This document shows, one piece after another, positions 10,730 to 64,000 of a stretch of DNA of 64,000 bases. The translations under genes were made by a program, and so were the position numbers. Source of the stretch: a virus; the IMG/VR virus record IMGVR_UViG_3300027733_000032. One strand, 5' to 3'. Position 1 is the stretch's first letter. Every line of letters starts with the position of its first letter. The notes under the pieces were generated by a model, which was given only the letters and a program-made list of their open reading frames with translations, ran no database searches and had not been told where the DNA came from.

Positions 10730-10853
10730 ATAGTATACTGAAACTCAATACACTAATTTCAGTAAACTAGACATATTTCCAACATAGTTATCATTAGTTG
10801 CAGAATACTCACACCTACTGAAACTATCATTGTCAATAGACGCTAGGAGAGAT

Positions 10854-12314: not shown

Positions 12315-12349
12315 TTTTCGGCCTTGGGTTAAGTCTCGAATCTAAGGGC
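12293..12349 (+). promoter_or_regulatory. putative -1 programmed ribosomal frameshift signal
   Basis: A_AAA_AAA at 12293-12299 in X_XXY_YYZ register; 7-nt spacer; stem gcccttag (12307-14) / ctaagggc (12342-49); -1 frame open from 12281 to 22699. Confidence 0.72.
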
Positions 12350-12406
12350 CTAGGGCCAAAAATTGGAACACGACTTAGTGGTGGGCTTCGTGCAGCACCG
12401 CCAGGA

Positions 12407-24569: not shown

Positions 24570-27500
24570 GTGGGATTGGAGCCCGGAATGGCGGGTAAAG
24601 GTATCCCTCATCGTTATTCCATTAAGCGTTCCAATACGTTGCATGAGCGTAACATCGATGAGGTTGCTCTATATTTTAAAGAACTACAGACGTATGCTGC
24701 TGCTCAGCCATACCTCAACCCATTTCTTTCCATCAAAGCACTAAGCCCTGACGCTAAGGCCAGCAACGCCACTGCTAAGCCTGAATCAAAACGTACCTCA
24801 GCAGACGAGGATGAGCAAAAACTAAAAATAGAGTTCAACCCTAAGGCGACACGTAAACCAGGTCAGGTATTAAAACTTCACGTTACCTATGACGAAATGA
24901 AGTCAAAAGAAGGTGCCAAATTTGGCTGGATTGACCCAGCAAAAATGCCTTCCAAAGAAGAAATAAAAGCAAGCAAAGAAGAATTCAAAAAGACTATTGC
25001 AAGTAGGCCTACTGCAGTTTTTCGCGAGTATGAGCGTGGTCTGGACGGCAACCCAACACCTCGCCTTCTAAGTGAAGTTCGCTACAAGGGGCTTGGACAA
25101 ACGATTGGGCAAATGCAGCCCGAACAGCGTGTAGGTAATGCTGCAGCGGCGGCTCTTGGTGTCGTATTTGATGCTGCCGGAAAAATGCGCTGCCCTCCAG
25201 GCACACCAAATGCAAACCAATTTACTGACGAAAACATGTCTAACTGTTTTGTATTTTCCCCATTGACCGTAGCGCGAGAAATTCTACGCGTTGGTCGACG
25301 TCTCGCCGAAAGACTAGATGGCAGCGGTGGAGCGACCAGCAGGCAAGACCTTCGTTTTGATACTGCCTATGACGCCGAAGCATTCCGAAAAGCAGAACGA
25401 GTAAAGGGCGTCTACACTAAAGCCGAAAGAATGCGGGAGAAGTGGGGTGCAAGAACAAGCGCAATAGAAAATATGTTTACAAAACATGGCATTGATATGG
25501 ACGACTCCATTGGTGCTGCAAACGGAGACCATATTCATGCTCTTGCTAATGAATATAGTTTTTCTAAAATTGCAAAAATATATTCCGATGCGGACCCTGA
25601 CTTTACATTCTTCGACCCATCAAATGGCGAGGAAATAACCGACGACATCTGGAATTCTTTTGACTCTGCAAAGAAGGCAGAAGTCGCGTCGTACAATGCA
25701 AAACGCTACGACGAATCATTACGTCAAGAAATTACAGAGATGGTTCCTGAATCGATTAGGGAAGCAGCAAGAAATGGTGATGCTGATGCTCAGAAAGCCC
25801 TAGACGAGTATGTCGAGCGCACCCGAGAGATTCACCACAAAACGCAACGAGGAATGCTTGGTTCATTGCTTCAATACAAAGACGAAATGGGCGATAGGCA
25901 AGATGCTTTTGGTGGTTTCAGTAGTCATGGAATTTCTGGAAAAGATTTAGTCACTACGGAGGCAATGGCATTGCCTAACATGGATGAAAATGGGATGCCT
26001 GCGGTGACCATTACCATCAATCCAATGTCCGTCGCTGTTCGAGGTAGGATGCCTTACGAAAAAAATGGTTCGCTATTTCTTGAAATAGAATCAGATGTGT
26101 CTCTCAGTGAAGCAGAGAAACAAACAGAGATATTAAGAGTTATGCGCGAAATTACTGATGCGCAAGAATTTGTAAACCTTGTTGGTTATGCTAACGAACA
26201 AAGTGCCGCTCGTGGAGTTGCTGACCTTGGCGTTTCCTCAGAGGAGATGAAGGGTGCTCACGTCATGTGGCACGAACTTGGTCACGTTCAACAATATAAC
26301 GTTGCTAGAAATAAAATATATGATTTTTATGACAAAAATGGTTTCTTCCCCGTAGTCATTGACGGAAAACTTGAAAAATTAGAAACACCTCCAGCAGCAT
26401 GGAGCAATGGGACGTGGGCAAGTGCCATGGACTCAATGATGGGTGCCACTGCCGATAGAGGGGGGCCCTTCGCCAAAACGGGCGCAATGGGATTCCCTCC
26501 CTTTGGGACAGACGAGTTTGAAGATTCATTTCTTCATTTTGTATCTGGCAATTACTATCAAGACAAAGTTCAGGGAGCACTAGGAGTACTTGGTCTCCCT
26601 GAAGAAGGTGCGCATCGTCAACTTGCCCTCATGGAGGGAACGACAGAACTCTTTGCGCTTGAAAAATTGGGAGTTATCGAAGGTCCGGAAGTAAGGCAAT
26701 TCACTTCATGGATGGACCCCGTAGACCCAGCACCAGTACCCTCACTACCTCCTGGGGCCCCACCTGAGGTTCCTGACGTCCCAGGACCAGATGTCCCCGA
26801 GATACCGACTGCGCCGCCAACAACGCCATCCCCGCCCCCTGGAACAACAATAATTGATAACAGCACGACTATCAATATCGTTATCAATGGACCAATAAAT
26901 ATCCATGTTGGTGGAACGGCTCCGGATTGGGACGAAGGAGCCATTGAGCCCCCAATTCCACCAAGAAAAACCGTCGACCTTAAGTGGGAAGACATAACGC
27001 CAATGATTCTTGCGGACAAAGACTCTCAGTGGACTGCCTCTCCATCAAGTGGCGCTGATATTGGGCAGAACAAAGACATGCAAAAACTGTGGTTGGACAG
27101 CGTATTTGGCATGGGTCCAGAAGAGGGGGGATTTGTACCAGAACAAGGTGAACTTCCTCGCATAGATAAAGACGCCTATTGGAAGTTGTCTCCACAGCAA
27201 ATGGATACTAGATACGAGTTTTTACGTGGTGAAGCAGATGCTTTAATTCTTAAATCGGAAACAGAATCATTAAATAAAGATGAGCAAGCCAAGTTATGGC
27301 TCGCAACAAAGGGCATGCAACAAATACTTGACATGAATGGCAAGAAAGCAGCACTCGCCGACGCCAAACGTGAAGAATACCTAAGAGATGGCTTCGACCC
27401 GACTCCAGGGAAGTACCTAAGACAAGTCGACTCACCACTGAAACCTCAGCAAAAAGGTTTCCGAAAATTAGCAACAAAACGTGCCGAAGAACGTGGTTAC

Positions 27501-30500
27501 GATGTCGTTGAAATAGACGATGATGAACTTTCGCACTGGGCGCGTGAAATTTCAGACCATGCTGGAACAGCGAGTGATTCTGGTGCGGATGCCTTCAGCG
27601 GAGCCGACCGCCCATATAAGCGTGGCGAAGTAAGAAATAATCCAAGTTTCAATACCAAGAAGAATCTTGAACGTAATCCAAACTACGAACCAAGCAATGA
27701 GCCTCCCACTCCAGATACGGATTCTGCAGGATATGTTGGAAGTAAATTGGACGAAATCAAATCACGCTCGACTCCAGAACAGCGTGCGATTCTTGACAGT
27801 AGTGAAACTGTAGAAAAGCGCGAATCGGTCGAAGCCCTTATGGATTCTTCAGACCCAAGCAAATTGTCTGGGATGCTGAGTAGGAGTGCGGAAAAACGAC
27901 AAGCAGCAAAAACTGGGGGGGAAATAAAGCGCTCAACTCCTAGTGAGTCTGGCGACATTATTGATGATGATTTCGAGAGCGGCGTTGTGCCATTCCTGGA
28001 TTTAATAGAAACATCAAAATTTGACGACGACGTCAAACTGGTTACCTCCATGCAAATTCCAAAAAATGGAATTTCGGATGGGGACACAATCGACCACACT
28101 AAAATTATGCGTGGCAAAGTTGTCGATTTTGATACTAGTGATGGTTTTGATTTCAGCCAGCCCGAAGCCAACAGGCGAGTGGTCATCGAAATGCCCAAGG
28201 GCAGTCGTGGCGTCCCATCAAAGAATGCACACAACGGCGACACTGATGACTACCTCTTGCCGCCAGGAAGTCTTTCTGTTGTTCGCGTCGACCCTGATGG
28301 GACAATTTTTGCAACACCATTAGAGCAACATGGCAAAAAAGAAATTCTCGATGACATGGAGAAAAATCTCAATGGGATTGAACTAGGTGCTGATTCTTTG
28401 GAAGAATTGGAACGTCGTACGCTCTTGAGTTCAATAAGCAAAGAACGTTCAAAAGTTGTTCCAGAAAAGCGTACAACTCGTGGATTGAGTAGTTCAGGTC
28501 CCAGGGCCGCGCGTCAGTCTGCTAGAAATCAAGCGATTGTTGATGGCTTCGATAAAAATGGAAGCAGTATCTACGGTACGGATACCCGCATCGGCATGTC
28601 GCCCGAAACGCTTGCACGTATGGAAGGCGAGAGTAATGACAAATTCAGAAAAGCACTTGGCCTAGACAGAAGCGTAGAGATTCCAAAGCGTGACCAACGC
28701 GTTGAATCGTCCGTAGCAAAACTTGGTGGTCTCCTATCTGGGAAAGCAGAACCCTCAAATCAAGAAGAATTTGAATTTGTTAATTCGCTTTCACCGGAAC
28801 TCAAAGATTTATTCACAAGCCTCGATGCCTCTGAAATTAAGTCAATAGTTGACGATGAACTTTTCGACTACCACCAACAGTTTGACGACAGGGTTCGAAT
28901 TTCCCTGCACCCGGAAGAGTTTAAGGAATTCTTAAAGACTGGAAAACTCAAGAACATTACGGAAACAAAGCCGAATAGTGCATCGGCGTCGATGTTAAAG
29001 GAGTTTGAGGGCAAATTAGGAATGTCTGAAAATTTGCCAGATGGTGCTCGCAGCCACTCTGGTTTCATGGTTCACAAAACACATACGGACGAAATTGCGG
29101 ATTACTTAAATGAACTGCCTGGAAATGGCATTTCTCGCAATCCGCACTTCTTCTCTGAAACAGATGATGTAAATCCATCCGGAAAATCACGTGCTGGCGG
29201 AAAAGTTATTGATTTGGTTCTCGCTCCAGAAGTTGCTCAGCGTGCCGTATACGGTCGCGGAGACGTCACTGGTGGAGAAGTACTTCCAACTCCCGTACTT
29301 TCTACCAACAGAGCAGAAGTCGGTAGTGCTTTTGTGAATCTATCGGATGTTTCTGAATCAAGCGAACTTGATGGAATGAAACAAATTGCCGAAGTCCTAG
29401 AGTCAAGCATTACCGGAAATAAAACAGGCCTTGGTGGCGGACACGGGGTCCCAACTTCTGTCAAGAGCAGAAACCCAGGATTTGCGCATGAGGCACTTGT
29501 TGCTGGTGGCGTGACTATTGCAGACGCAGAACAAATCCGCATCCCCGTAGAAGCACTAGACATGGAAGATGTCACTGTTTCGTTTGATGGTGTCGAGTTA
29601 GATAATGTGCGACAGCAATTAAGTCAGGCTGGATTGACTAATTCAGAAATTGATGACGTCATTGACAAAATTGGTGCTGGTATTGCGCCGTATGCGCTAC
29701 CCGAAATTGAACGCATGCGACAGGGGATGGCCTCTGAAAAAATGTCAGAGGAACTCTCATTGGTTCCGAATCATTCAATGACGCTCGTTCCTACTAATCC
29801 CGATGGCGTAGACGTTCTTAATCCAGACCCATTACCCGGCGAGCCGACTACAAATAAAGAAATGCGCGATGCTTGGAGAAAGCGTTATGCCGTCGAGTCT
29901 CAACTGAAAAGTATTAAGGATTTGGCTAAACATGAAAAAGAAACCAAAGGCAAAATTGAACCACGCATGTCGGCCAAATCCCCGTCAGGAGAATCGAGGG
30001 TTTCACAGAGACGACAAGGTATTCGTTATTCAGAAGACGGATATAAATCAATATACGAAAATGGTATTGACGACTTCGTAAGCGAAGCGGTAGATACTGT
30101 TGAATACAACCCCAAAACACGTGAACTTCGCGTCTTATTTAAGGGACAGTCAGACCCCTATCACTTCCTTGACGTAGACCCTGATGATTTAGAGGATTTT
30201 GGCGACGAATTTGAGCCAATCGGCAACAAGATTGACAGAATTAAGCGCACCAACAATCGTACTGTTAGAGGCCCGGACGGTTCCGTAATTCGCTGGGACG
30301 GTAAAGAATGGTCCTATGAAGACGCTGGCATGAGTAGCAAGAAGCCTAGTGTTCCATTCGATGGCGATATTTCCGATAAGACCCCAGATGACATTGCGTT
30401 TGACAGTGACATTGATGAAATCATTAGCCCAAGTAGCACTTCCAGAATCGGAATGTTTATCCCTCAGGAGAGAGCGACAGACTCGGACATTTTTGATACC

Positions 30501-33500
30501 GATGAAATAAAAAAACGCATTGAGGGAATGAGTGCTCGCCTTGGGGAAATGAACCCTCGCGATATGGACAGACGGAAACCTCGCGTCGATGAAAATGGCC
30601 GTCCCCAACAACTCCTTGGTGCTGGTATGGCATCTCGTCGCGATAGTAAACTTGCAGAATCTGACAAGCCCAAGAAATTTGGATTTGGTAAAAAATCAAA
30701 AATCAAACAGGGCGTCGAATCCGACGATGAGAGGCGCAAGCGCATTCTTGAAATGTCAAAGGGAGACCCTCGCACTTCTCCTGGCGTAAGAAAAGCCAAT
30801 TATCAAACATATGACGGCAAGGATGTTTACGCAGTAGACAACATGGATGATGCAATTGCACTCTTAGTTGCCGGACATCATGTTGACCTGTCTGACTCCC
30901 ATGACGAGGGTGACCTTTGGGGAGAATTTAAGTCCTTTAAGAAATGGCTCAAAGGCGTAGACAAGGCCGCTGCCAAGAAAATGAGTTTCAACCTTTGTTC
31001 CGTGCATAAAGAAGGAGCAAACATTTTCTGTGGAAAGCACAAGGGCATTATTCGTGACGATATGCCGCAAGTTGGTGGAACCGTGACTGACCCCAACGCC
31101 CCTGCAATAAGGCTCTGGGTTGGTGGCCATGTTCATGGCAACTCCTTTGACTCCTACAACGGCGCAAACACCCCAGACTGGGTGAAGCAGGGGCTATTGT
31201 CCGAACAGACAGACCCAGAACTTTTCAAGCGAGCCAAGGCTGAGTCTGACAGATTAGAAAACGTATATCGCGCCCTCGGTAGTCGCTACTACCCAGGAAA
31301 CACGGTTGACCCATTGACAGAGGCTGAGAAACAAGAATTCTTCTCATTGACCGACATCCGCAAGGTTGAGCCGGACATGATTGACAATTTTGTTGATGTT
31401 CTTAGGGCAAACGGCGTTAACGTCAGCGAACCAGAAGACCGCGACCCCATGACTCTGCGCGCAACACAAAATGAACTTGTTGCTGGAACAGTTCTTGGAC
31501 TATCAGACGCAATTACTAGTTACGAAGACATGTTGCAAATTGGTCAACGACCAGATGGCACGCCATTCACTCAACAAGATTATGACAGAGTTCGGATGCT
31601 TGGGCCAATACTTGTCACAAAAGACGGTTATATTCTAGATGGCCATCATCGCGTATTCGGAAAAGTAGCGGCAAACTTTGACCGAGAAGATAACGACCAA
31701 CTTGCGCAAAAAGTTCGTGTTGTTGATATGCCACTAGAAGCACTTTTGTCGTTTACTCGTGCCTATGGAGAGCACATTGGAATTGCCGCAGCAAGTGGGC
31801 AAAGCACGGAACGACGTACTCTTCCAGATGACATCAAGACCCCACTTGACATCATTCCAGCAGCAGCGGGGGATTTGGAAAAACTAAACGCCGAATTCAC
31901 AGACAACCTAGATGACAAAGTTAAAGCCCTCGAAGAACGTGATGGACATCCATTCTTTAAGCCTGAATCACCAGGATTTGAACAGGGTGAATCGTATAGG
32001 CAGTCAATGCAATTTGTTGAGCGTCGCGTATTGACTGACAAGCAACCAGGAGAACGTTCATCTCCGTCGCGCGTTCCTTCATCTGGAGGAATGGCGTCGC
32101 GTCGCTCGGGCATTACGACGCCAGGAGGACGAGACAGCGTTGGTGCAAATAGGGTAGATACATCAAGCGCAGTGCAGCCCAATGCCAGAAAGATGCATGA
32201 GGATGCTGTCAGTAAAACAATGGATGCCCTGGACGGAGTGAACCTCGATGGTTTGAGCGAAAGTGAACTCCAATCACGATTTGGTGTTGCGCGAAGTGGA
32301 GAAAAGTCTTTAATTGATAGCAGGGACATCTACCATACGACAGATGGTGCTACGGCAATCGCAATGCTCGCACGTGGGTACAACGTCGAAGTAGATAATG
32401 ATGGTCTTGCAGCAGAAGTATCCGACAGTCAAGCAGCATTCAGGAAAATGATTGAAGCAAATGTTAAAAAACTTGAAAATCTTTCTGCTGACGAAAGAAA
32501 CGCACTACTCGATGAACTTACCGTAGATTTATGCAAACTATATGTTGCTGGCAAAAATGTCATGTGTGGAGAAAATATCGGCATTGATAGGGAACAGATG
32601 CCACAATTGTCGGGCCGCACACTGGGTGACGATACGCTAGCGATGCGTGCCGCAAAAGATGGACACATCCCTATGAAATGGGCGGCTATCGATGAAAAGA
32701 ACCTTCCGCCAGAGGAATTGGCAAGATTTAAAGAATTAGAAGCAAAACATGTAGCACCAGGCAGGGATGAAACATTTGGTCCTGGTGAAAAAGAAGAGTT
32801 CTACAGTCTTGTCGACTGGAATAATAGCGAGGCTGATGTTGTAAAAGAATTTGAAAAGAGTCTTGAATCATCGTTAAAGCCTGTAGACAAGGATGGCAAC
32901 CCTACTTCGGCAGTTATTCTAAAAACAGCCAGGCCAGAATCGTATAAAGCATCACAACGTCAATTGGTTGGTCATAAGACTGACGAAATGCGTGATGGTA
33001 TTCGAGAAAATTTAACAAAATTTGATTCACACGCCGAATCACTCGGACTCAAAAAAGGTACACCAGAATATAAAGAAATGCGTGCGAAGTGGCTTGCTGG
33101 GGAATATAAATTTGCTGACAGCAATGGGGTAAAAGTCAAAGCATGGTGGACTGACCCATTACTTGCAACACGCGATGGATACGTACTGGACGGCCATCAT
33201 AGGTGGGCGGCAATTAAGTTAATTAATGACGAACTTCCAGAAGATGAGAAACTTAGCCTTCGATGGAAGGAAGTACAAACAAACGTTGTCGAAGCCCTCA
33301 CTTTAGGAAAAGCATTCCAGGATAAGTGGGGAATTAAAGAGGCGAAACTTAAAGGCGAACGTCAATTTGTTAAAAATGATGAAGTCCCAGGAATTGAGTT
33401 GGGTGAAATAGTCAAAGAGATGGATGAATATCACTCCAAATTGACAGACACGTTGGATGAATTACATAGCAATAATCAATTCATTCGTAAACAATCTCTT

Positions 33501-34877
33501 GGTGCACGAAAGAATCCAAAAGTTGCCGCAGCACAGGTGGAGGCAGGCAAACGTGGCGAAGAGTGGGCCGCTCGACAGAGTGGGGTGAGTGGCGGAAAAG
33601 TACGCGTACCTCGTGAAAAACTTGAAGAAATACGTGGCGGAAAACTTGAAGAAGTGAGTGGTGAACCTCAAGGAATGCGTTCTCTTTCGCGTCCTTATCG
33701 CGACACGAGTGACGAAGAACTAAAAACCCAGTACGACAAGTATTTGCGCTACTTGGGTGGCCCTGGAGATAAGGGAGACGGCGACCTTACCTATATGCGA
33801 CGGGCTAAAGAGTTTGATAAAATTAAAAAAGAAGTTGCTCGACGTAGGGAAGATGCTGGAGTAGATGGCGGTGGTCGCGGTTCTCTTTTACGTCCTTATC
33901 GCAATACGAGTGATGAAGAATTAAAAGCAATATACGAAAAATATTTACGTTACTTGGGAGGCCCTGGAGACAAGGGTGACAGTGATTTTACCTACATGCG
34001 ACGTTCAAAAGAGTTCGATAAAATTAAAAAAGAAGTTGCTCGGCGTGAGGAATATGCTAAAAAACCAAGCAGGGGAATGCGGTCCTCTGTTGGCAAGAAT
34101 GTGCGCGTCCGTGCTGGCGAGGGCGGCGTCCCCGAGAAAGTATCCTCAGGCCAGCCCGATACTCCCGAAGTAAAGACGCCACCAAAAATTGAGAGAACTC
34201 ACAAGGGTGTAGATATACCTGAATTTATCGACGAAATGCCAGCCGAAGGTCAATATAGCGACGAGGTTGTTGAAAAAGCAGTTGAACTACATGACAAAGT
34301 CAAAAAAGTTGAACCAGAACTTACTGACAATTTGATTGACATGGCCGCCGAAGGTGGCGGAGAGATGGAAGGTCTTGAATTCAGGTTTAAGGCAACTAAA
34401 GGAAACGCAAAGAAGATAACTAATATTTCGCGAGATAGCGGCATATCGGTAGAAGAGGCACAACTGCAGGTTCCCGACGCGGTCAGATACACAATGACAT
34501 TTCCTGAAGAAGAATATGTTGGCGGAGCAGAAAACGTAATTAGTCGTCTTGAGGGAATAGGGCATGAAGTACAAGTTAAAAACTACTGGGACGAAGGCGA
34601 TGGATATCAAGGAATTAACATCGTAGTAAAACACCCTGATGGTTTCTTGTACGAGTTGCAACTACACACGCCTGAATCGTTTAAAGTTAAGCAAGCAGCA
34701 CACGATGCTTATGACGAGTATCAAAAAGAAAAAGATGATGTCATTCGTTTGGAGTTATTCCGAAGAATGGCTGCCGCTGCAGGAGAACTTCCAATGCCCA
34801 AGGGTGACGTCAAGGGAATAGGCAACCTAGCCAGGAAGAACTTTCAGACTTGGGCACAACAACAGGGAGGCAAGTAA
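24570..34877 (+). CDS. giant polyvalent protein 2 (zincin, degenerate ART, DUF3626-like, KTSC, 2x ParB-like, C-terminal RelA/SpoT synthetase)
   Basis: HELGH ~26270; IEMPKG...YLLPPG ~28190-28270; KTSC ~30090; two DGYxLDGHHR motifs (~31620, ~33170); RFK...DAVRY...GYQGIN...ELQLHT 34380-34680. Confidence 0.85.
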   Translation: MGLEPGMAGKGIPHRYSIKRSNTLHERNIDEVALYFKELQTYAAAQPYLNPFLSIKALSPDAKASNATAKPESKRTSADEDEQKLKIEFNPKATRKPGQVLKLHVTYDEMKSKEGAKFGWIDPAKMPSKEEIKASKEEFKKTIASRPTAVFREYERGLDGNPTPRLLSEVRYKGLGQTIGQMQPEQRVGNAAAAALGVVFDAAGKMRCPPGTPNANQFTDENMSNCFVFSPLTVAREILRVGRRLAERLDGSGGATSRQDLRFDTAYDAEAFRKAERVKGVYTKAERMREKWGARTSAIENMFTKHGIDMDDSIGAANGDHIHALANEYSFSKIAKIYSDADPDFTFFDPSNGEEITDDIWNSFDSAKKAEVASYNAKRYDESLRQEITEMVPESIREAARNGDADAQKALDEYVERTREIHHKTQRGMLGSLLQYKDEMGDRQDAFGGFSSHGISGKDLVTTEAMALPNMDENGMPAVTITINPMSVAVRGRMPYEKNGSLFLEIESDVSLSEAEKQTEILRVMREITDAQEFVNLVGYANEQSAARGVADLGVSSEEMKGAHVMWHELGHVQQYNVARNKIYDFYDKNGFFPVVIDGKLEKLETPPAAWSNGTWASAMDSMMGATADRGGPFAKTGAMGFPPFGTDEFEDSFLHFVSGNYYQDKVQGALGVLGLPEEGAHRQLALMEGTTELFALEKLGVIEGPEVRQFTSWMDPVDPAPVPSLPPGAPPEVPDVPGPDVPEIPTAPPTTPSPPPGTTIIDNSTTINIVINGPINIHVGGTAPDWDEGAIEPPIPPRKTVDLKWEDITPMILADKDSQWTASPSSGADIGQNKDMQKLWLDSVFGMGPEEGGFVPEQGELPRIDKDAYWKLSPQQMDTRYEFLRGEADALILKSETESLNKDEQAKLWLATKGMQQILDMNGKKAALADAKREEYLRDGFDPTPGKYLRQVDSPLKPQQKGFRKLATKRAEERGYDVVEIDDDELSHWAREISDHAGTASDSGADAFSGADRPYKRGEVRNNPSFNTKKNLERNPNYEPSNEPPTPDTDSAGYVGSKLDEIKSRSTPEQRAILDSSETVEKRESVEALMDSSDPSKLSGMLSRSAEKRQAAKTGGEIKRSTPSESGDIIDDDFESGVVPFLDLIETSKFDDDVKLVTSMQIPKNGISDGDTIDHTKIMRGKVVDFDTSDGFDFSQPEANRRVVIEMPKGSRGVPSKNAHNGDTDDYLLPPGSLSVVRVDPDGTIFATPLEQHGKKEILDDMEKNLNGIELGADSLEELERRTLLSSISKERSKVVPEKRTTRGLSSSGPRAARQSARNQAIVDGFDKNGSSIYGTDTRIGMSPETLARMEGESNDKFRKALGLDRSVEIPKRDQRVESSVAKLGGLLSGKAEPSNQEEFEFVNSLSPELKDLFTSLDASEIKSIVDDELFDYHQQFDDRVRISLHPEEFKEFLKTGKLKNITETKPNSASASMLKEFEGKLGMSENLPDGARSHSGFMVHKTHTDEIADYLNELPGNGISRNPHFFSETDDVNPSGKSRAGGKVIDLVLAPEVAQRAVYGRGDVTGGEVLPTPVLSTNRAEVGSAFVNLSDVSESSELDGMKQIAEVLESSITGNKTGLGGGHGVPTSVKSRNPGFAHEALVAGGVTIADAEQIRIPVEALDMEDVTVSFDGVELDNVRQQLSQAGLTNSEIDDVIDKIGAGIAPYALPEIERMRQGMASEKMSEELSLVPNHSMTLVPTNPDGVDVLNPDPLPGEPTTNKEMRDAWRKRYAVESQLKSIKDLAKHEKETKGKIEPRMSAKSPSGESRVSQRRQGIRYSEDGYKSIYENGIDDFVSEAVDTVEYNPKTRELRVLFKGQSDPYHFLDVDPDDLEDFGDEFEPIGNKIDRIKRTNNRTVRGPDGSVIRWDGKEWSYEDAGMSSKKPSVPFDGDISDKTPDDIAFDSDIDEIISPSSTSRIGMFIPQERATDSDIFDTDEIKKRIEGMSARLGEMNPRDMDRRKPRVDENGRPQQLLGAGMASRRDSKLAESDKPKKFGFGKKSKIKQGVESDDERRKRILEMSKGDPRTSPGVRKANYQTYDGKDVYAVDNMDDAIALLVAGHHVDLSDSHDEGDLWGEFKSFKKWLKGVDKAAAKKMSFNLCSVHKEGANIFCGKHKGIIRDDMPQVGGTVTDPNAPAIRLWVGGHVHGNSFDSYNGANTPDWVKQGLLSEQTDPELFKRAKAESDRLENVYRALGSRYYPGNTVDPLTEAEKQEFFSLTDIRKVEPDMIDNFVDVLRANGVNVSEPEDRDPMTLRATQNELVAGTVLGLSDAITSYEDMLQIGQRPDGTPFTQQDYDRVRMLGPILVTKDGYILDGHHRVFGKVAANFDREDNDQLAQKVRVVDMPLEALLSFTRAYGEHIGIAAASGQSTERRTLPDDIKTPLDIIPAAAGDLEKLNAEFTDNLDDKVKALEERDGHPFFKPESPGFEQGESYRQSMQFVERRVLTDKQPGERSSPSRVPSSGGMASRRSGITTPGGRDSVGANRVDTSSAVQPNARKMHEDAVSKTMDALDGVNLDGLSESELQSRFGVARSGEKSLIDSRDIYHTTDGATAIAMLARGYNVEVDNDGLAAEVSDSQAAFRKMIEANVKKLENLSADERNALLDELTVDLCKLYVAGKNVMCGENIGIDREQMPQLSGRTLGDDTLAMRAAKDGHIPMKWAAIDEKNLPPEELARFKELEAKHVAPGRDETFGPGEKEEFYSLVDWNNSEADVVKEFEKSLESSLKPVDKDGNPTSAVILKTARPESYKASQRQLVGHKTDEMRDGIRENLTKFDSHAESLGLKKGTPEYKEMRAKWLAGEYKFADSNGVKVKAWWTDPLLATRDGYVLDGHHRWAAIKLINDELPEDEKLSLRWKEVQTNVVEALTLGKAFQDKWGIKEAKLKGERQFVKNDEVPGIELGEIVKEMDEYHSKLTDTLDELHSNNQFIRKQSLGARKNPKVAAAQVEAGKRGEEWAARQSGVSGGKVRVPREKLEEIRGGKLEEVSGEPQGMRSLSRPYRDTSDEELKTQYDKYLRYLGGPGDKGDGDLTYMRRAKEFDKIKKEVARRREDAGVDGGGRGSLLRPYRNTSDEELKAIYEKYLRYLGGPGDKGDSDFTYMRRSKEFDKIKKEVARREEYAKKPSRGMRSSVGKNVRVRAGEGGVPEKVSSGQPDTPEVKTPPKIERTHKGVDIPEFIDEMPAEGQYSDEVVEKAVELHDKVKKVEPELTDNLIDMAAEGGGEMEGLEFRFKATKGNAKKITNISRDSGISVEEAQLQVPDAVRYTMTFPEEEYVGGAENVISRLEGIGHEVQVKNYWDEGDGYQGINIVVKHPDGFLYELQLHTPESFKVKQAAHDAYDEYQKEKDDVIRLELFRRMAAAAGELPMPKGDVKGIGNLARKNFQTWAQQQGGK

Positions 34878-35161
34878 TGAAAATGATTTCATCCGATACC
34901 CCTGAATCAACTAGGTACTTCTTTCATGTGCTCAACAATGGGAAGGTTATTGGCCTATTTCGCCTTTATCTCAACCTGGACTACCCGAAGAAAGGCTCCA
35001 AGGGGATTGAGGAAGTTGAATGGAGAAAAGATGAGTGGCTCGCCACCACCGACCTTACTGGTTTTATGATTAACGGCTCCCATGAAATAATGGAAGTCGA
35101 CGAGGAAATAGCACGTTCAAAGTTTCCAAAAGCATTTGATGAAAATGAAGGCACAAAGTGA
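34877..35161 (+). CDS. small protein after the RelA/SpoT domain, candidate immunity protein
   Basis: ATG overlaps the stop of giant 2 (TAATG); aromatic/acidic ~94 aa; arrangement matches MuF-type toxin-immunity pairs. Confidence 0.65.
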   Translation: MKMISSDTPESTRYFFHVLNNGKVIGLFRLYLNLDYPKKGSKGIEEVEWRKDEWLATTDLTGFMINGSHEIMEVDEEIARSKFPKAFDENEGTK

Positions 35162-38100
35162 AATTGCGTGCAGTTTTAGTAGGAACTTTTTACGACAGCA
35201 AGTTGTATTACTTACTCGACCCCGTTGGTGAGAAAAATTCAACTGGTGCTCTCGTTGATAAAAAGGGAAATGTTGAGTACGTTAAATTCTTTCATTTCAT
35301 TAAATCTAACCCCAATGTCAAAGAATTAAAATTCAGCAAATTTCATCGTTTCCTCTGGAATGCCCCCAGTCCTGAAGATAAGCCCAAGTGGATGCGTACG
35401 TTCATTAATGGCACCCAGCCAGTCGGCGAAGAAATGTTGCAGGGTGCAAAGATAATCACCGAACTCTCTCCTGTTGTTGAGAAAAAACAAGACATAGGAG
35501 AAAGGGCTCTTCAGTTTAAGTCAATGAATGCATCACAAAACGCATCACGAATACAGGGTTCTGTACTTGCTAGAAGCGTTAAGTCCATTAGAGAAAAATA
35601 TGGATTTAAGGGTATTGGAATGTCAATAGGAAACAAGCCAGCCATAGATGGTGATGGTGATGGATTTGTAGATGACGGGCTTCCAACAATGAGGCCATTC
35701 ATCCCTGGCTTCGACTTTGTCTTAGATGCCGCCGGGAACATTCGGGAGACCAAACCTACGAATCAGATTACAAAACCCGTAACTCGTGGCGGGATGAGAA
35801 GTGGTGTCGTGACAAGACCACAGACACTCGAAGATAGGCTTGCTCCAATTTCAGAACAGGAAATGCGAGATAGTTTTAGAAAAATTCGCTCATATGTTGA
35901 GATGAAATTCAACGATGGTGTCCCTTTTTCAAAAAAAGGCGAGGCATTAGCAATACTTAAAAAAACTATTCCGTCTTTTGCCTCTGGCGAATCATACATT
36001 GAGTTTTTAAATAATTTGCCGAATGATGATGATGTTATCCCTGATTGGGCAAGGCGATACCTGGATTCCTTCCTACTCTCAATAGATGCCCAACCAATGT
36101 CTGCTCAATTTAATTATCATATGAGAAGAGCAGCGGATAGTAAGAGTTACGAAGGTGCAGTCGGCACTAGGCCCGGAACCAATGATTATGTCATGGTCGA
36201 CCCAGTAGGGGAAAAGTACGCTCCAACACGAACAAGGCAGCCCCTTATTGTTTTTTGGTACAAAGAAGCAGTTGCAGTAACGCCAGCAGTATCGGTTACT
36301 GCCGATAAAAGAATGGCTCCATTCTTAGTAAGCCATGCAATTTCTGCAAACGCAATGAATGAGCAACTCTTGAATGCCGGGATAACTAAGCGCCAACTAG
36401 AAGATTTGAACAATCTAGATAGGGTTGATGCAACACTTGTGAGTATTATTACTTCACTAAATGAAATAATTCAACAAAATCCAACTGCGAGAGTTAATGA
36501 TGCTGAAAAAATATCACAAAACCTAGTTAATGCCATTGAGGCTTTTGTAGATGTAAAAATATCTAATTCAGTCATAGACCCTAAAACTAATTTTTTTCTT
36601 GAAACTCCAAAAATTCCAGCAGTAACTTTCAAAGACTCCAAAGATAGAGAAAAGCCTTTTATACAAAGCAATATTTTGCGACAACTCGTAGACAAAATTG
36701 TAAAATCCAATAACAATCCTTTGCTTTCAGACTTGCTAACAAGTGCCCAGGATGCGAGTTTGTCGGCTCAGCGAACAATTTCTAGTGACAACACTCTTAG
36801 AAAAACTCAAAGAAAACTATCATCCATCATGGAAGATGCGCGAGTTTTAACGACCGGCATGATTGCAGTGCATGAATCAAATCACATGCTACAAAATATT
36901 CAAGCATATATTGATGTGCAAAATGAAGCATCTATTCTGAGAAAAAAATTAATAGACGAACGCATTAATGCAGCAAACAAATTGCAGATTCCAATAACTC
37001 CCGAGATACTCGCAGCAATAGAAGATGAAATAAAAGTAGAAAATTTATATCAAGATTTATTTGTTGAAAAAGCAGTAAAACTTGCTAAGAGCGATATTGA
37101 TTTAGCAAAGAGTCGACTCCTTCATGCTGATTTGGCGCGTGTCGACGCAATTTCCTTAAACTTAGAACGCGATAAAAAGTCTCCTGAATATAAAAAAACT
37201 CCGGACGAAGCACCCGCTCATTATGGATGGAGAAATACGGATGCCGTAGTTGATGCCACGAATCAAATGATATTGAAGTGGGCTGAATTCAATAATCAGG
37301 GTGATTCTTCTTTGTCTGACAAGCAAAAATTAGCAAAACAAGCAATAGTAGATTTTCTAAAACAACCACTATTTGATGGAACTAATGAGATAAAAATTGG
37401 AGAAGGGATTGCTCGTATACTAAATCAATTGGACGCTATCTACGTTGGCGACCTGTCTACTGCGTTTGCAAACAATGGGCCTAGATTTGTATCGGGAGAA
37501 AATCTTAATATTGGAATGGTCGCAATACTCCTTAATTCAGCACTGATTGAAGATGCTCAGCGAAGAAATATCTTTAGTGGATTGAAATTGCGCAATTATT
37601 CAGCACTTCTTAATGAAGTTGGATTTCCTGATTTCGCTATTATGGACATGAATGGCGATGGAGTGAAGATACAGGGACTCGATATTAATGAGTCAAGGAA
37701 ACTATCTGCTGCAATCATGAATATGAATAGACTTGCCCTGTCAATTCCTACCGACCCAACAAACGGCATGGTATCTCCGTCACTGAGCGTGAGAGCAACA
37801 ACTGCGTTGAGGGCATTTCCTGACGATGCAATGCTGCCATGGCCATTTTCAAATTTGACCAAAACTGAATTCCTAGCACTACCGGATGATACTTTCATTA
37901 AAGGATATGAAAAATTAATTGATACATCATTAAAGGCACTTTTGGGCGTCGCAAGACCACAAGATATAGGCACGTTCCTTGAAGATTCATTAATATCAAT
38001 GAATTGGTGGGACAAACTGTCAAAAGAAGAAATAGAACTACTTCTTGAAGTGGGAAAACGAATTGGTGAACCGAGCATCAAGACGGGCAGGTCGGGTACG

Positions 38101-38370
38101 GGTTATGCCCCATATATGGGACACCTCACTCCTCAGCATTTACCAATGTTGGCCATCCATCCACAATTTTCTGAATTTACGGCAGAATTTGCCGTTGCCG
38201 AACTATTTGGTGTTGCTTTATCGCAAATAGACATATCTATATCACCAGATGGTAAAAAATCTGCCACTACGCGAGCATTGTCGGATAATGAGATAGCGGC
38301 AATAATGAAATTTATGAGATGGATGTATCCAAATCAAATGTTGGGCGAAAAAATGGAGACAATGCAGTGA
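35158..38370 (+). CDS. large virion-associated protein (DxDxDG module, GMRS, HExxH zincin-like)
   Basis: IDGDGDGFVDDG ~35645; GGMRS 35788; VHESNH ~36870; EFTAE near the C-terminus. Confidence 0.75.
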   Translation: MKLRAVLVGTFYDSKLYYLLDPVGEKNSTGALVDKKGNVEYVKFFHFIKSNPNVKELKFSKFHRFLWNAPSPEDKPKWMRTFINGTQPVGEEMLQGAKIITELSPVVEKKQDIGERALQFKSMNASQNASRIQGSVLARSVKSIREKYGFKGIGMSIGNKPAIDGDGDGFVDDGLPTMRPFIPGFDFVLDAAGNIRETKPTNQITKPVTRGGMRSGVVTRPQTLEDRLAPISEQEMRDSFRKIRSYVEMKFNDGVPFSKKGEALAILKKTIPSFASGESYIEFLNNLPNDDDVIPDWARRYLDSFLLSIDAQPMSAQFNYHMRRAADSKSYEGAVGTRPGTNDYVMVDPVGEKYAPTRTRQPLIVFWYKEAVAVTPAVSVTADKRMAPFLVSHAISANAMNEQLLNAGITKRQLEDLNNLDRVDATLVSIITSLNEIIQQNPTARVNDAEKISQNLVNAIEAFVDVKISNSVIDPKTNFFLETPKIPAVTFKDSKDREKPFIQSNILRQLVDKIVKSNNNPLLSDLLTSAQDASLSAQRTISSDNTLRKTQRKLSSIMEDARVLTTGMIAVHESNHMLQNIQAYIDVQNEASILRKKLIDERINAANKLQIPITPEILAAIEDEIKVENLYQDLFVEKAVKLAKSDIDLAKSRLLHADLARVDAISLNLERDKKSPEYKKTPDEAPAHYGWRNTDAVVDATNQMILKWAEFNNQGDSSLSDKQKLAKQAIVDFLKQPLFDGTNEIKIGEGIARILNQLDAIYVGDLSTAFANNGPRFVSGENLNIGMVAILLNSALIEDAQRRNIFSGLKLRNYSALLNEVGFPDFAIMDMNGDGVKIQGLDINESRKLSAAIMNMNRLALSIPTDPTNGMVSPSLSVRATTALRAFPDDAMLPWPFSNLTKTEFLALPDDTFIKGYEKLIDTSLKALLGVARPQDIGTFLEDSLISMNWWDKLSKEEIELLLEVGKRIGEPSIKTGRSGTGYAPYMGHLTPQHLPMLAIHPQFSEFTAEFAVAELFGVALSQIDISISPDGKKSATTRALSDNEIAAIMKFMRWMYPNQMLGEKMETMQ

Positions 38371-39426: not shown

Positions 39427-41456
39427 TTATTTACGATTTGCAGAAACCGAGTAAATGTTGCCCAAATTCCGTGGTTACTGTTCGTCGTCATATCGTCGAA
39501 ACGAACCGCCAGCCACAGGGCGGAAGCATTCTTTTTTCTCAAAAGGCCGTAAATCCAGAAATAGTCACATACAAAGCACTTTCTCAGTCCCACGGAACTA
39601 GATTTAAGTACGAAGTTAAAAGAGTAGGGCTGGTTGGCTCTAGTGGGAAATTGGGACAAACACTACAGGCTGCTGGTTCCTATGTCCTTCCTGGAGATTC
39701 GTCTCCATTGCGTAGCCCGGTTAGGTCCGGTCTATTCACGGCAATAACTCCCGGAGTACCTAACTTCAGTAGGCCACGCGGCCCCAAGAGGGACAGAACA
39801 GCAAGATGCCCTGAAGGATATCAATACGGTGGTCGTTTTACTAATAACGAACTATCCACATGTGGAGCCCAACTATTTGACATTCCAGGACCACTGGGGG
39901 TCGTTATTGGCGTAATTGCCCGAGCACTTCGTCGTGGCGAACGAGCCGTAGCCGATGCCATGCAAGGGACCCCATTGACCCCTGGGGATTATGGTGGCAG
40001 CCTCATAGATTCACGTCGACCACAAATACCGCGCGTCGCAGACGCTAATCCAGCCTCACGGATGGCCGAAATTACCCGCCTTGCAAAAGAGATGGGCGCT
40101 CCCAAAATCAATGCTTCACGCATGGTGCGTCGTGATGGATTTGTTCTTGAACCAGTAGTAACACCAAGAGTCCTTCGCGCAATTCCAGACAACAGAGACA
40201 TGGAGGGTGCCGCATATCTTATGCGAATCAACGACCTTCCAAGCCTGGGTCAAGATGAATTAGGACTTCTTTCCAATACTGGAGTAACTAATCTAACCTA
40301 TGTTCTTCCAGGTGGCTCAACAATCACTCTCGAAAAGGTACGCTCATTAACCGTTGGCGAGCGCCGCAAACTTGGTAGAACAGTCAATTCAGCAGCAGCG
40401 ATTGATAATTCAGAAAATCCAACCGCCCGTCTCATGAAGGTAGCCCAAGAAACTGGCGATGGTATTAAGTATTCCGAAAATTTTGTAAGCGTGAATAGAC
40501 CCCATGAAATTGTTAGGGGTAGAAATGGGAAAAAGACGGAACGGTGGGTTCGTGAACTTCTTGACGGCATCCCAGTGGCAGAAACAGCGCCATCACGTGA
40601 GACTTCGTCTGTTGCCGCAATAGCCGACAAGATTAAAGACGTAGATGAGGCTGCAGCCTTTATTGAGCAGGGTGGAAGCCTGGCAAGAATTTCGCCGGAT
40701 ATTCTTCAGCAGGCCCTCACAAAAAACAATTTATTCCGCTTGCGAGATATGGGCAATGGAGTCACTCGGCTTGATGGCCCTAGAGGCAAAACTTATTCAA
40801 TTTATCAATCTCGCAATGAGTTTGACCATATCAATAGCACTTATGCTTCCGATATTCAACAACATCTGGGCCTAGAGTCGCCAGATGTGTATCCGATTGG
40901 TTCGGGTAGTCGCCGTAATTATCTTATGGATTCGACACTAAATACCTACCCTGGAATAACTCCACGTCGAGACATTCCAATGAATCAAGTTAGTCCAAAA
41001 AAAATGGCATCACTATTTGTCTCTGACTATTTGAGTGCCAATAGAAACAGAAATCCGCTGTCAATAGAAGTGATGCAATTAGCGGACGAAAATGTTCCAG
41101 TAGTCAATTCCTTTGACTCAGAATTAACAGACTTGGCTAAAATAAAGATTGCAGACCGTAATAAGGGCGCAATTGAAGACATGCGCTCATTGTCTGCCAA
41201 TGGCGTTTTCGGCAAATATTATGCTGAACTTAAAAAATCACAGCAAAATCAGTACATTACTGAAATTAGGGAATTAATTGCACGGGCTCGCCTATTTAAT
41301 TTTGTAAACTTTAAAGAGAGACTTCAGCGTGATGGCGCGCTTTCCGATGCGGAACTTGCACATGTTGACATTATTAATACAATCAGCAAGCAAAGGCTGA
41401 ATATTCTCGAAAATCAACAGGAAAGACTTGTTGAAATACTCGGAGGTAACAAGTGA
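39423..41456 (+). CDS. virion-associated protein with an RCP-G-GxFT-C motif and a C-terminal degenerate HipA/PI3K-like kinase fold
   Basis: RCPEGYQYGGRFT ~39805; LGLESPDV...SDYLSANRNRNP...NSFD resembles DxLxxNxDR but the catalytic Asp residues are changed. Confidence 0.65.
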   Translation: MIIYDLQKPSKCCPNSVVTVRRHIVETNRQPQGGSILFSQKAVNPEIVTYKALSQSHGTRFKYEVKRVGLVGSSGKLGQTLQAAGSYVLPGDSSPLRSPVRSGLFTAITPGVPNFSRPRGPKRDRTARCPEGYQYGGRFTNNELSTCGAQLFDIPGPLGVVIGVIARALRRGERAVADAMQGTPLTPGDYGGSLIDSRRPQIPRVADANPASRMAEITRLAKEMGAPKINASRMVRRDGFVLEPVVTPRVLRAIPDNRDMEGAAYLMRINDLPSLGQDELGLLSNTGVTNLTYVLPGGSTITLEKVRSLTVGERRKLGRTVNSAAAIDNSENPTARLMKVAQETGDGIKYSENFVSVNRPHEIVRGRNGKKTERWVRELLDGIPVAETAPSRETSSVAAIADKIKDVDEAAAFIEQGGSLARISPDILQQALTKNNLFRLRDMGNGVTRLDGPRGKTYSIYQSRNEFDHINSTYASDIQQHLGLESPDVYPIGSGSRRNYLMDSTLNTYPGITPRRDIPMNQVSPKKMASLFVSDYLSANRNRNPLSIEVMQLADENVPVVNSFDSELTDLAKIKIADRNKGAIEDMRSLSANGVFGKYYAELKKSQQNQYITEIRELIARARLFNFVNFKERLQRDGALSDAELAHVDIINTISKQRLNILENQQERLVEILGGNK

Positions 41457-44400
41457 AAAATTACGCCATCCTTAGAGACGCGGTCGAGGAAAAAGTATTT
41501 GGCCTCGTCATTGAAAAAGATGGTGGTTTTCGTTTCTACGGAGCCGATGACAGAGCAAAAGAGTGGGCTAATTGGGCTAACTCGACATCACTCAAGTCCC
41601 TACAAGAAGCACTTCCGGTTGGCGTCATTGCCACCGACAAGCGTCCATTAGTGAATGATACTGAATTATTTATTGAATCACTTATTGAATCTGCATCAAA
41701 TGCTGGCGAAATAAAGAAGCCGACTTTTTCATACAAGAGTTCATATGTTACTAGAGCAAACTCATCAACCCCGTCAGCCCGAGATTTTCAACTGCGTTCG
41801 TTCAATATCGACGCCAGACAGAATGCCATCAACTTCAAGGTTTACGCATTTAAGAATGACCAGAAGTCATCTTCGCTAATGGCGAAAATTCGTTCGGCTG
41901 GTCTTGGCTTCAATGAAAAAACCGGTGAATTCAGAAGCAATGACATAACAATTTCTCATTCCTCGCTACAGCAGAATATCGAAACTACATACACCAAGTC
42001 GCTACAGCGCAATATTGGTTTCAATGTCATGGCAGCCAAGAATGTTTATGCTAAATCACTCAGTCCTTTCTATACGCACCCCAAAGTCATTGAACTCAAA
42101 AGACTCGGTGGTGCAATTGGTCCAAAGTTGGGTCGTGGACTACGTTCCGCTCCGATGGGAATGGTATTCGTCGACGTTACCGGAGCGATTGATGCTGACA
42201 AGGATGGCATTGTCTTTGAGGGTAAGCCTGGATTAGAACGACCAATTATTCCTAAATTCATTCTTCCAGAAGGTGTCGGTCGTCGTGTGGCTTCACTGAT
42301 TGGTGGAGCAGCAGAACAGAATGAAAAGAATCGCCGCTCGGGCGCGAATGGTGGTGGAGTAATTGACGAGGCAAAACTTCGCAGTATTCTCGGAACTGAC
42401 GCCTCATCCCTCAATAAATTAAATGCTCCTTCTCCGTTGACTGATAGCGATAACGCAAATGCCACTGGCATGCGTTCTATTGCTGGGAACATTAGAAGTC
42501 GACGTGATGCGATTATCGCTAAACGTACTGGCTCGATAGACCTGTCTAGGGTTGGGCGTGGTGAAAAGACTCAGTTGAATACCGGCGATTCGCGCGCTGT
42601 TGAAAAAATGACATGGGATGATTCGGCAAAGGAATTAATTGTCACGTTTGCTGGTGGTCGCACATATACGTACAACAACGTCGACGACAGTTGGGTTGAT
42701 GAACTAGAGAAAAATCCTGATGCACTCGGTCGCATCATGAATGACATCAAGAAGGCTGGATACGATTTCACTTCAGGTGGAACCCACGCTCCAGACAAAA
42801 CGCTTGCCAGCAGAATGCAGGGTCGCCGTGAGGCGGCAGGAATGCGCTCGGCTAGAACCGGCAACAATAACCCGCTCAAGCAATCCGAAGTAGATGAACT
42901 TTTCTTCGACAATGCTGCATGGTCAAATGATGCGCTTCAGTTCGGTATAGATACGGACTCTCGTGGGAATTATGATATTGAGGGAAATAATCCATTGTCA
43001 GATGTTTTGTATCGAGAATTCCCCGGCAGATTCAATGTAGATGAAGGTGGCAGAGTCGGAGTACCACGCCAAGACCCTGAAGTTGTTTTTGATTCCTCAA
43101 ACATGAGCGATGAAGAACTTGCTCTTTTCACTGACATTCTCGCAGAAAATGACCCTGCAGTCTTGAAAGATTTCCCTACTAGTTCAGGTACTGGCATGTC
43201 CTCTCGCAAGGGACCAGACGCGACTACTAAAAAGACGAATTTGTCCGAAACGAAGTGGAAAGGCAAGCGTCTTTCAGATGATTTGCTAAGTAGGGAAGAT
43301 TTAAGTGGAGAAGACCTTTCTGGTGCCAATCTCGAAGGTGTGAATTTAAGTAATAAAAACTTCACTGGAGCGAATTTAAGCGAAGCCAATTTATATGAAG
43401 CCAATTTGCAAGGCGCCCGCCTCGTAGATGCTGACCTTTATGCAGCCGATTTAATTAAAGCAAATCTCGAAGATGCAAATCTCGAAGGCGCACGTCTAGA
43501 GTATGCCGATTTGCGTGAAGCAAATTTATTAGATGCCAATTTGAATGGAGTAAATTTAAACGATGCTCAACTTGGTTTTGCAAATCTAGACAAGGTTGAC
43601 CTTGGGGGCGCCAAACTCAGTGGCGCTGACCTAACTGGGGCATCATTATGGAAAGCAAATCTTGAAAATGTAGACCTGAGTAATGCTTATTTAGGCAATA
43701 TTAAATATATGACAAATGCCAAACTACAGGGGGCAAATCTCAGAGATGCAGACCTCAGAGGTACGGACTTGTCCATGGCAGACATGACAGATGCAGACCT
43801 CAGGAATGTCGATTTTACTGGCGCAAACCTAGATGGTGCAATTTTTTCTGGAGCAAATCTAAATGGCACAAAACTAGATAAGGGCTGGGAACAAAGCGTT
43901 GGCATGCGCTCATCAAGGAAGCCAAGCAATAATGACTTTGACACGAATAGATTTCTTCCCTCATTGGCTGACAGAGAAAACTACGTTGCTAGTGACGAAT
44001 ACGAAGCAGACCTAGAGGATTGGCTCACTCGTTTTCCAAGAAAGACAGAAGCGGATTTCCGACGCAGCAAGACGTTCATGGAAAACGTAAGCATGTTTAA
44101 TCCAGGCCCGGATGTCTCTGAATTCTCAAGAGAAGCAGACATTTACGACGGATGGTCTCCTGAGGAAATTGATTCAGGCCTACCCGACACTCTCTGGCGA
44201 GGTATGAGTTCACGTACTAGTGGCCTCACTCCAGAAGGCAAACGCGATATTAATGACGCAACAAAGAAGTTGTCAGATTTCTCGCGCAATTCAGCGTTTG
44301 GTGACGTGTATCCAGGTGCAGAAAAATTTGACAGCAATAAGAGACTGCATCAATCCATTAGTGACATGTTCGAGGATGCAGACATGCCTTCGCAACGTGT

Positions 44401-46714: not shown

Positions 46715-46733
46715 CTAGGACAAGGAAAATAAA

Positions 46734-47072
46734 ATGGCACAAAAAGTAGACCCACGAGAAGAATTTCATCTAGCACATAACCTCATAGGTTTGCTTATGA
46801 CATTCCCTCCATTTTCAATTGACCAAGATATGAGAAAGCAGTTTCAGAATGAATCAGTTCTAGCAATTGAAAGTCTTGTTCAATCTAGTGCTAGTGATTC
46901 CGAATGGAATTCAGTACATGACACGCTAATGGAAAAGTACGCTACCGAACTAGAGGAAGCGTCATTATGGAATGCTAGAAGTAGCGGAGACACGGAAGAG
47001 GCGAAAAAGTTGGCGTTGGCCTTGGAGGGTAAGACCCCAGAAGAAATCAAAACTTATTTGTTCTTGTCCTGA
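46734..47072 (+). CDS. small acidic helical protein after giant 3 (candidate immunity/chaperone)
   Basis: 112-aa ORF with AAGGA upstream. Confidence 0.65.
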   Translation: MAQKVDPREEFHLAHNLIGLLMTFPPFSIDQDMRKQFQNESVLAIESLVQSSASDSEWNSVHDTLMEKYATELEEASLWNARSSGDTEEAKKLALALEGKTPEEIKTYLFLS

Positions 47073-47098
47073 ATATCACTGCTTTAGGTGGATTGAAA

Positions 47099-63977: not shown

Positions 63978-64000
63978 GAGTATGGATTGACCAACACATT

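Follow-up and report, generated by a model that had tools for sequence, protein, structure and literature searches.

A predicted RelA/SpoT-type toxin cassette and its candidate immunity gene on a giant polyvalent protein of an uncultured tailed phage

The 64,000-nucleotide stretch of viral DNA analyzed here (the window; IMG/VR virus record IMGVR_UViG_3300027733_000032) encodes several giant proteins in its head-morphogenesis block, and the second of these, giant 2, carries the system of interest at its C-terminus. Giant 2 (3435 amino acids [aa] in the translated list of open reading frames [ORFs]; 24570-34877, plus strand, as are all features below unless stated otherwise) ends in a 267-aa cassette (34074-34874) that starts at a GMRS sequence, giant residue 3169, and is assigned to the Apk/EAS type of RelA-SpoT SYNTH domain. 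It is followed by a 94-aa ORF (P0002; 34877-35161), a candidate IapK/Tis1-like immunity protein to this RelA/SpoT homolog (RSH) cassette. We regard it as fairly probable that the locus is an Apk/EAS toxin cassette with an IapK/Tis1-type immunity protein, mounted on a polyvalent giant that is packaged and delivered. The reading is carried by the homology, fold, and active-site conservation of the cassette, by the similarity between the profiles of the small protein and IapK, and by the joint gain and loss of cassette and small gene among relatives.

The original prediction, made from the letters of the sequence, had named this region a virion-linked RelA/SpoT synthetase. The motifs that it quoted are all present in the last 267 residues of giant 2: EFRFK (34377-34391), DAVRYT (34476-34493), KNYW..GDGYQGIN (34578-34619), and YELQLHT (34650-34670). 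In a phmmer search of the PDB, the sole match to the cassette is SaEAS, an exported alarmone synthetase from Streptomyces albidoflavus (8VX3); because the E-value is 4e-14, the similarity is far above chance. A family profile built from 41 relatives finds the same structure at E 3.9e-39, together with Tas1/Apk1 (6OX6) at E 5e-7. The domain is widespread: a HMMER scan of 1.84 billion representative proteins gives 3440 clusters at E ≤ 1e-3, of which 2108 remain at E ≤ 1e-10. In these clusters it stands alone, closes proteins of 500-900 aa, or occupies an internal or terminal position in giants of 2000-3800 aa. Its fusion partners among representative matches include MuF plus ADP-ribosyltransferase, an XkdF-type protease, and ferritin. 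We note that two of the MuF proteins (P0014 and P0017) carry an RSH domain and then an ADP-ribosyltransferase, which places two toxin-type modules on one MuF carrier.

A single-sequence AlphaFold model of the cassette attained a predicted local distance difference test (pLDDT) score of 50 and was not used. The AlphaFold2 model calculated instead from the 41-sequence alignment has a pLDDT of 90.2 and shows the SYNTH fold, in which helices flank a central antiparallel sheet, with a folded core spanning cassette residues ~31-263 (34164-34862). Foldseek ranks 8VX3 first (template modeling [TM] score 0.85, E 1.5e-12), followed by Tas1 (E 3.5e-6), RelP, RelQ, and Rel. There are 34 PDB matches at E ≤ 1e-3, and among the matches listed (18, to rank 34) all are RSH-family synthetases. 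Cassette residues Asp135, Arg138, Asn182, Glu194, and Gln196 align with Asp121, Arg124, Asn169, Glu182, and Gln184 of SaEAS, the residues that constitute the SaEAS/Apk1 active site (PMC12691689). Together with Arg104, Lys106, and Lys114 they make up the catalytic and ATP-site residues of the cassette, and these columns are invariant across the 41 relatives in the family alignment. Homology, fold, and residue conservation thus support the prediction of a RelA/SpoT-fold pyrophosphokinase whose active site is intact, and the synthetase identity proposed from the motifs holds.

The 94-aa ORF is a real conserved gene. The TAA stop codon of giant 2 (34875-34877) overlaps its ATG (34877-34879) in the sequence TAATG, the coupling that had been pointed out in the original prediction, and a Shine-Dalgarno sequence, GGGAGG (34865-34870), lies 6 nt before the ATG inside the end of giant 2. 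The stop of the ORF in turn overlaps the GTG start of the following gene (GTGA, 35158-35161). A first search returned eight close homologs, and a profile search extended these to 37 clusters with identities down to ~25%. When the family profile is compared with a 60-sequence IapK profile in hhalign, the two match with a probability of 92% and E 6.4e-7 over 57 columns, which span nearly the whole of IapK. The score of 37.7 compares with at most 18.8 for 100 column-shuffled IapK profiles and 11.8 for the reversed profile, and the match is the same after more distant members are added.

Other routes to an identification were less productive. P0002 has no match in Pfam, PHROGs, PADLOC, or the PDB, nor in the phage collection searched with tblastn. 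The IapK profile has no solved relative, IapK itself does not match Pfam Tis1_ImmP, and neither P0002 nor IapK has a detectable sequence match to Tis1. In the ESM Atlas, P0002 has a cosine of 0.83 with a 69-aa cluster, 11% of whose members contain Tis1_ImmP, and this serves as a weak lead only. As at Apk2 loci, then, a Tis1/IapK-like gene lies directly downstream of the toxin domain, here recognized as a coupled ORF with an IapK profile match. These comparisons support the view that the 94-aa protein is a distant IapK homolog that behaves as the cognate partner of the cassette, and as a candidate immunity protein it would neutralize it.

The distribution of the small gene among relatives ties it to the cassette. 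A search of viral contigs with the small-ORF alignment found nothing, and loci were obtained by anchoring on a conserved 677-aa neighbor. This gave 80 IMG/VR loci of the wider clade, 75 of which are informative: three have a terminal RSH domain with the small ORF at once after it, in six the RSH domain is internal and the small ORF is missing, and the other 66 contain neither. Where the small ORF itself led to metagenome loci, an RSH domain closes the immediately preceding gene in 11 of 11 cases, and these upstream giants are 2003-3815 aa long where complete. One further locus, L017, has the same arrangement. All 15 clade loci that have a terminal RSH domain therefore also have the small ORF, which none of the 66 syntenic loci without an RSH domain contains. 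Members of its family also follow RSH domains in two other carriers, a 525-aa XkdF-protease-RSH fusion (E 3e-9) from a phage with a different capsid type, and a 578-aa protein (E 4e-7) at which the ORF is cut by the contig end. In all of these settings the IapK/Tis1-type gene occurs only with its toxin domain.

L018 and L027, whose anchors bring them closest to the window in identity, lack the cassette and the small ORF and keep both flanking genes, including a homolog of the 1070-aa gene (35158-38370 in the ORF list; no assigned function) that serves as the downstream synteny marker. Their giant 2 is homologous to that of the window up to ~residue 3000 and then continues into a different terminal module. 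The stop codon of the giant overlaps the start of the 1070-aa homolog, with no small ORF between them. The comparison identifies the cassette and the small gene as one insertion/deletion unit, and together with the profile match and the two other carriers it strengthens the earlier proposal that the coupled ORF is a candidate immunity partner. By the same evidence, we find it unlikely that the 94-aa ORF encodes no inhibitor but a routine head-module product, for instance a chaperone of the giant or an assembly factor, and adjoins the RSH cassette by chance. Such a gene could well be missing from the six internal-RSH loci and from L100, an 869-aa RSH carrier, and its likeness to IapK could well be remote. 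An ordinary head-module gene would not, however, be expected to be absent from all 66 syntenic loci without RSH, among them the closest relatives with both flanking genes in place, nor to follow RSH domains in two unrelated carrier architectures, nor to match the IapK profile well above shuffled controls.

The link to the virion comes from gene position and from the architecture of the giants. The window corresponds to the minus strand of a 90,311-base IMG/VR virus record with a CheckV completeness of ~60%, which sets the scope of the genome-wide searches described below. Giant 2 sits inside the head-morphogenesis block, between the portal (8699-10729) and S78 prohead protease (10830-12314) genes on one side and the major capsid protein gene (57587-58897) on the other. 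Its modules include a zincin HExxH module close to the N-terminus, a pair of ParB-like modules, 65-aa repeats in tandem, and the terminal RSH cassette. The ParB-like modules are recognized by PHROG matches, the C-terminus matches the C-terminal parts of phrog_2859 and phrog_7625 (“head morphogenesis”), and a Pfam scan adds a weak KTSC match. Giant 4 (47093-56914) in the same block contains, between window positions 49349 and 52255, a Zeta-toxin-like kinase (residues 753-879), ArdC-N (residues 1446-1540, E 4.5e-23), and MPTase-PolyVal (residues 1608-1721, E 8e-35), a module set that is the classical repertoire of polyvalent proteins. Giant 2 is thus a very large multi-module phage protein with hallmark polyvalent modules in its block. 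The module survey of Iyer et al. (2017) lists RelA/SpoT among the phage-type modules of polyvalent proteins, and predicts that such proteins are delivered with the DNA (PMC5512222).

Furthermore, XkdF and MuF head proteins are fused elsewhere to homologous RSH domains, and we count toward the virion link that in relatives such as L008 and L009 the S78 prohead protease forms the N-terminus of giant 1, together with ArdC-N and MPTase. From gene position and polyvalent architecture we infer that giant 2 is probably packaged in the virion and injected. One could suppose instead that the RSH domain acts late in the producing cell, in host shutdown or signaling, and is neither packaged nor injected, with the small protein as its regulator. 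In its favor, toxin and partner belong to one late operon, where they share transcription and are coupled in translation. We nevertheless give it little credence, because the giant 2 gene is embedded among the portal, the protease, the ArdC-N/MPTase-PolyVal giants, and the capsid gene, and because of the same fusions of RSH domains to MuF and XkdF/S78 head proteins and of giant 1 to the prohead protease.

The closest characterized enzymes point to the likely product. Within the phage collection, matches to the cassette lie at the C-terminal ends of MuF proteins encoded by S. pneumoniae, Mannheimia, Pasteurella, and Aggregatibacter prophages; its identity to the Apk2 toxin domain is 35% for the S. 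pneumoniae prophage and 33% for the M. haemolytica prophage. The cassette is thus homologous to Apk1, Apk2, and SaEAS alike, which places it in the Apk/EAS branch. Apk2 toxin domains make only (p)ppApp in vitro, and their genes are followed by iapK, which encodes a small inhibitor that occludes the acceptor site, and then by aph1, which encodes an HD hydrolase (PMC12226406). The Tis1-like gene is always present at Apk2 loci, and Aph1 is variable (PMC10083569). The adenosine-kinase signature of these enzymes, RYT, GxN, and xH (PMC12226406), is found in the cassette. On these grounds (p)ppApp seems the most likely product, although only by a modest degree.

We consider it very unlikely that the cassette is instead a tRNA 3′-CCA pyrophosphokinase of the CapRel, PhRel2, or FaRel2 type, which would stop translation without making free alarmones. 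Toxic small alarmone synthetases (toxSAS) of the same fold do pyrophosphorylate tRNA (PMC12691689), CapRel (7ZTB) and FaRel2 (8PU3) are among the fold-search matches, and the substrate is not readable from sequence. These two structures, however, fall far below the nucleotide-using relatives, with E-values of 2e-3 to 4e-3 and TM scores of 0.32-0.42, against 1.5e-12 and 0.85 for SaEAS. Sequence searches with the cassette find SaEAS, Tas1, and Apk2 only, and the IapK-like partner belongs to Apk-type systems. Least probable of all is that the cassette is a decayed and inactive remnant serving as a structural part of the giant: a substitution at one nearly invariant syn1 position and the missing Pfam match would fit, but all catalytic and ATP-site residues are kept, the cassette is 90% identical in the cluster representative P0011, the same motifs recur in L002-L004 and in distant relatives whose domains are 38-46% identical, and the cognate partner gene is retained.

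In the mechanism that we propose, giant 2 is one of several polyvalent proteins of the head-morphogenesis block, and its last module would be a nucleotide 3′-pyrophosphokinase of the Apk/EAS (Tas1-like toxSAS) branch. The cassette would most likely transfer pyrophosphate from ATP to form (p)ppApp, possibly (p)ppGpp as well, and at the high rates known for the branch this would deplete ATP and ADP and arrest the cell. Synthesized late in infection alongside the giant, the 94-aa protein would bind to the domain and obstruct its acceptor site, sparing the producing cell from poisoning before assembly. The giant would then be taken into the capsid and cleaved at GM[RSA]S joints to release its cassettes, and the RSH cassette would be delivered with the DNA, free of inhibitor, so that the free domain could act early in the next host.

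The proposed cleavage draws on a short recurrent sequence. The pattern G-[ML]-[RASG]-S occurs 16, 8, 8, and 10 times in giants 1 to 4 (12407-56914), where fewer than one copy is expected. It sits at module boundaries, and the RSH cassette begins exactly at one copy, GMRS. The giants of the more distant relatives L006-L011 contain only 0-2 copies, which makes the pattern a close-clade trait. It may be a processing site.

The source is apparently a non-temperate, uncultured tailed phage of ~150 kb; searches of the 90-kb record for an integrase, a serine recombinase, or another recombinase found none. Its capsid protein shares 47% identity with the capsid proteins of Brevibacterium and Gordonia myoviruses. 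For such a phage a fuller scenario can be put forward, which we hold tentatively and regard as rather doubtful in its entirety. The RSH cassette, cut at GM[RS]S from a packaged polyprotein and injected uninhibited, would cause a brief collapse of host ATP or a stringent-like state that aids takeover or excludes competing phages. The late IapK-like protein would act as a safety device for the virus factory, and cassette and immunity gene would form a mobile two-part unit moving between giants and other head proteins.

Several observations weigh against reading the locus as a packaged Apk/EAS toxin with its immunity protein. The cassette matches no Pfam family at E ≤ 0.01, RelA_SpoT (PF04607) included, and falls short of the gathering score of that model, and only 17 of 41 relatives match RelA_SpoT, weakly, with a best E-value of 2.7e-4. 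Within the syn1 motif, R-x-K-x3-S-x3-K, the nearly invariant Ser is replaced by Gly at cassette residue 110. As to the product, SaEAS carries the same signature and makes both alarmones, and other EAS enzymes make only (p)ppGpp (PMC12691689). Motif swaps also failed to convert the specificity of Apk2 (PMC12226406). Product specificity, whether ppGpp, ppApp, or a tRNA target, cannot be read from the sequence. For P0002, plain hidden Markov model scores between the 94-aa family and IapK reach only ~12 bits, a remote likeness, and the blank results in Pfam, the PDB, and PADLOC described above count on the same side. No MuF domain (PF04233) was found in giant 2 or elsewhere in the 90-kb record, which likewise yielded no Aph1/HD_4 domain (PF13328) and, as noted, no integrase to indicate a temperate lifestyle. 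Finally, the packaging of giant 2 is a prediction from gene position.

The remaining difficulty is posed by RSH domains that have no recognizable partner. In L066, L068, L077, L089, L090, and L091 the domain lies ~500-1050 residues from the C-terminus of the giant (eg, L066:6709-7366) and keeps all of the motifs. No P0002/IapK-like ORF or cis-fused segment was found in any of these six loci, nor was a partner found for the 869-aa carrier in L100. Since these seven carriers lack it, the partner is not obligatory for the RSH domain. The small gene depends on the toxin, and the toxin does not always have this partner. The internal domains may be kept silent in cis or have some other protection.

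The other genes of the region complete the picture of a head module. The large terminase gene (7102-8406) lies upstream of the portal on the strand opposite to the head-module genes. The prohead protease ORF ends 92 nt upstream of the ATG of giant 1 (10830-12409). Giant 1 (3430 aa; 12407-22699) is followed by a 598-aa gene (22762-24558) and then by giant 2; beyond the 1070-aa gene, further genes extend up to 41452, where they give way to giant 3 (41453-46714). Giant 1 contains a NUDIX hydrolase module (residues 221-340, 13067-13426; Pfam E 1.4e-5). Some Nudix enzymes degrade alarmones, and it is a matter of speculation that the RSH product or signaling nucleotides of the host could be substrates of this module. 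Pentapeptide modules are also found in the sister giants. The C-terminus of giant 3 and the 112-aa ORF downstream of it (45812-47072), another candidate toxin/immunity pair, have no match in Pfam, the PDB, or PADLOC. The last 787 bases of the window (63214-64000) are absent from the 90,311-base record, and the window comes from a slightly longer copy.

Among known systems, the Apk2 loci of prophages of S. pneumoniae, M. haemolytica, P. multocida, and B. caccae, with a MuF-linked toxin, IapK, and Aph1 (PMC12226406, PMC10083569), offer the closest parallel. The toxin domains are 33-35% identical to the cassette and share RYT/GxN/xH, and in both cases the domain is the C-terminal module of a head-region protein with a small gene of an IapK-matching family directly after it. 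Unlike in Apk2, the carrier here is a 3435-aa polyvalent protein without MuF, and neither a gene for an Aph1/HD hydrolase nor a sign of lysogeny was found. The partner is a 94-aa, remotely IapK-like protein, and the activity is predicted. Because MuF is absent, the locus is not Apk2 as defined. The original prediction had drawn an analogy to MuF-linked synthetase toxins of temperate phages. That analogy is one of function and is no evidence of membership, since neither a MuF domain nor an integrase or recombinase was found.

SaEAS (8VX3; PMC12691689) is the best solved match by both sequence and fold and has identical active-site residues, but the domain here is a cassette of a phage giant with a partner gene. 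Tas1/Apk1-Tis1 (6OX6), a type VI secretion effector with its immunity protein, belongs to the same branch of the superfamily and follows the same logic, in which a delivered toxin is paired with a small immunity protein and the latter occludes the acceptor site. Its carrier, however, is a PAAR protein of the type VI secretion system, and P0002 shows no detectable sequence match to Tis1. The toxSAS toxin-antitoxin modules (FaRel, CapRel, and PhRel) likewise pair a SYNTH-fold toxin with a neutralizing neighbor product, here a candidate one. In contrast to the cassette, they are stand-alone cellular or prophage toxin-antitoxin or defense modules, several of which target tRNA; they give only weak fold matches, and PADLOC reports no match at this locus.

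The polyvalent proteins surveyed by Iyer et al. (PMC5512222) resemble giant 2 as giant multi-domain phage proteins with a RelA/SpoT module, and the sister giants share ArdC-N, MPTase-PolyVal, ParB-like, and pentapeptide modules with them. The modules of that survey were identified computationally in Spirochaete and epsilon-proteobacterial (pro)phages, and its account of them does not describe an immunity partner. Here, unlike in that account, a cognate small gene co-varies with the RSH module. Taken as a whole, the locus would appear to function as Apk toxins and IapK do, with this known pairing of toxin and immunity protein placed on a new carrier, the polyvalent giant.

The role of phage-borne alarmone-synthetase toxins during infection is stated as an open question in the Apk2 literature (PMC10083569). 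The present locus widens the system in three respects: the predicted toxin domain is carried on a polyvalent giant instead of a MuF protein, the Tis1/IapK-type immunity family extends far past its named members, and domain and candidate immunity gene come and go as a single unit within a large clade of uncultured phages. Loci whose RSH domain is internal and has no partner provide a natural contrast for when the inhibitor is needed.

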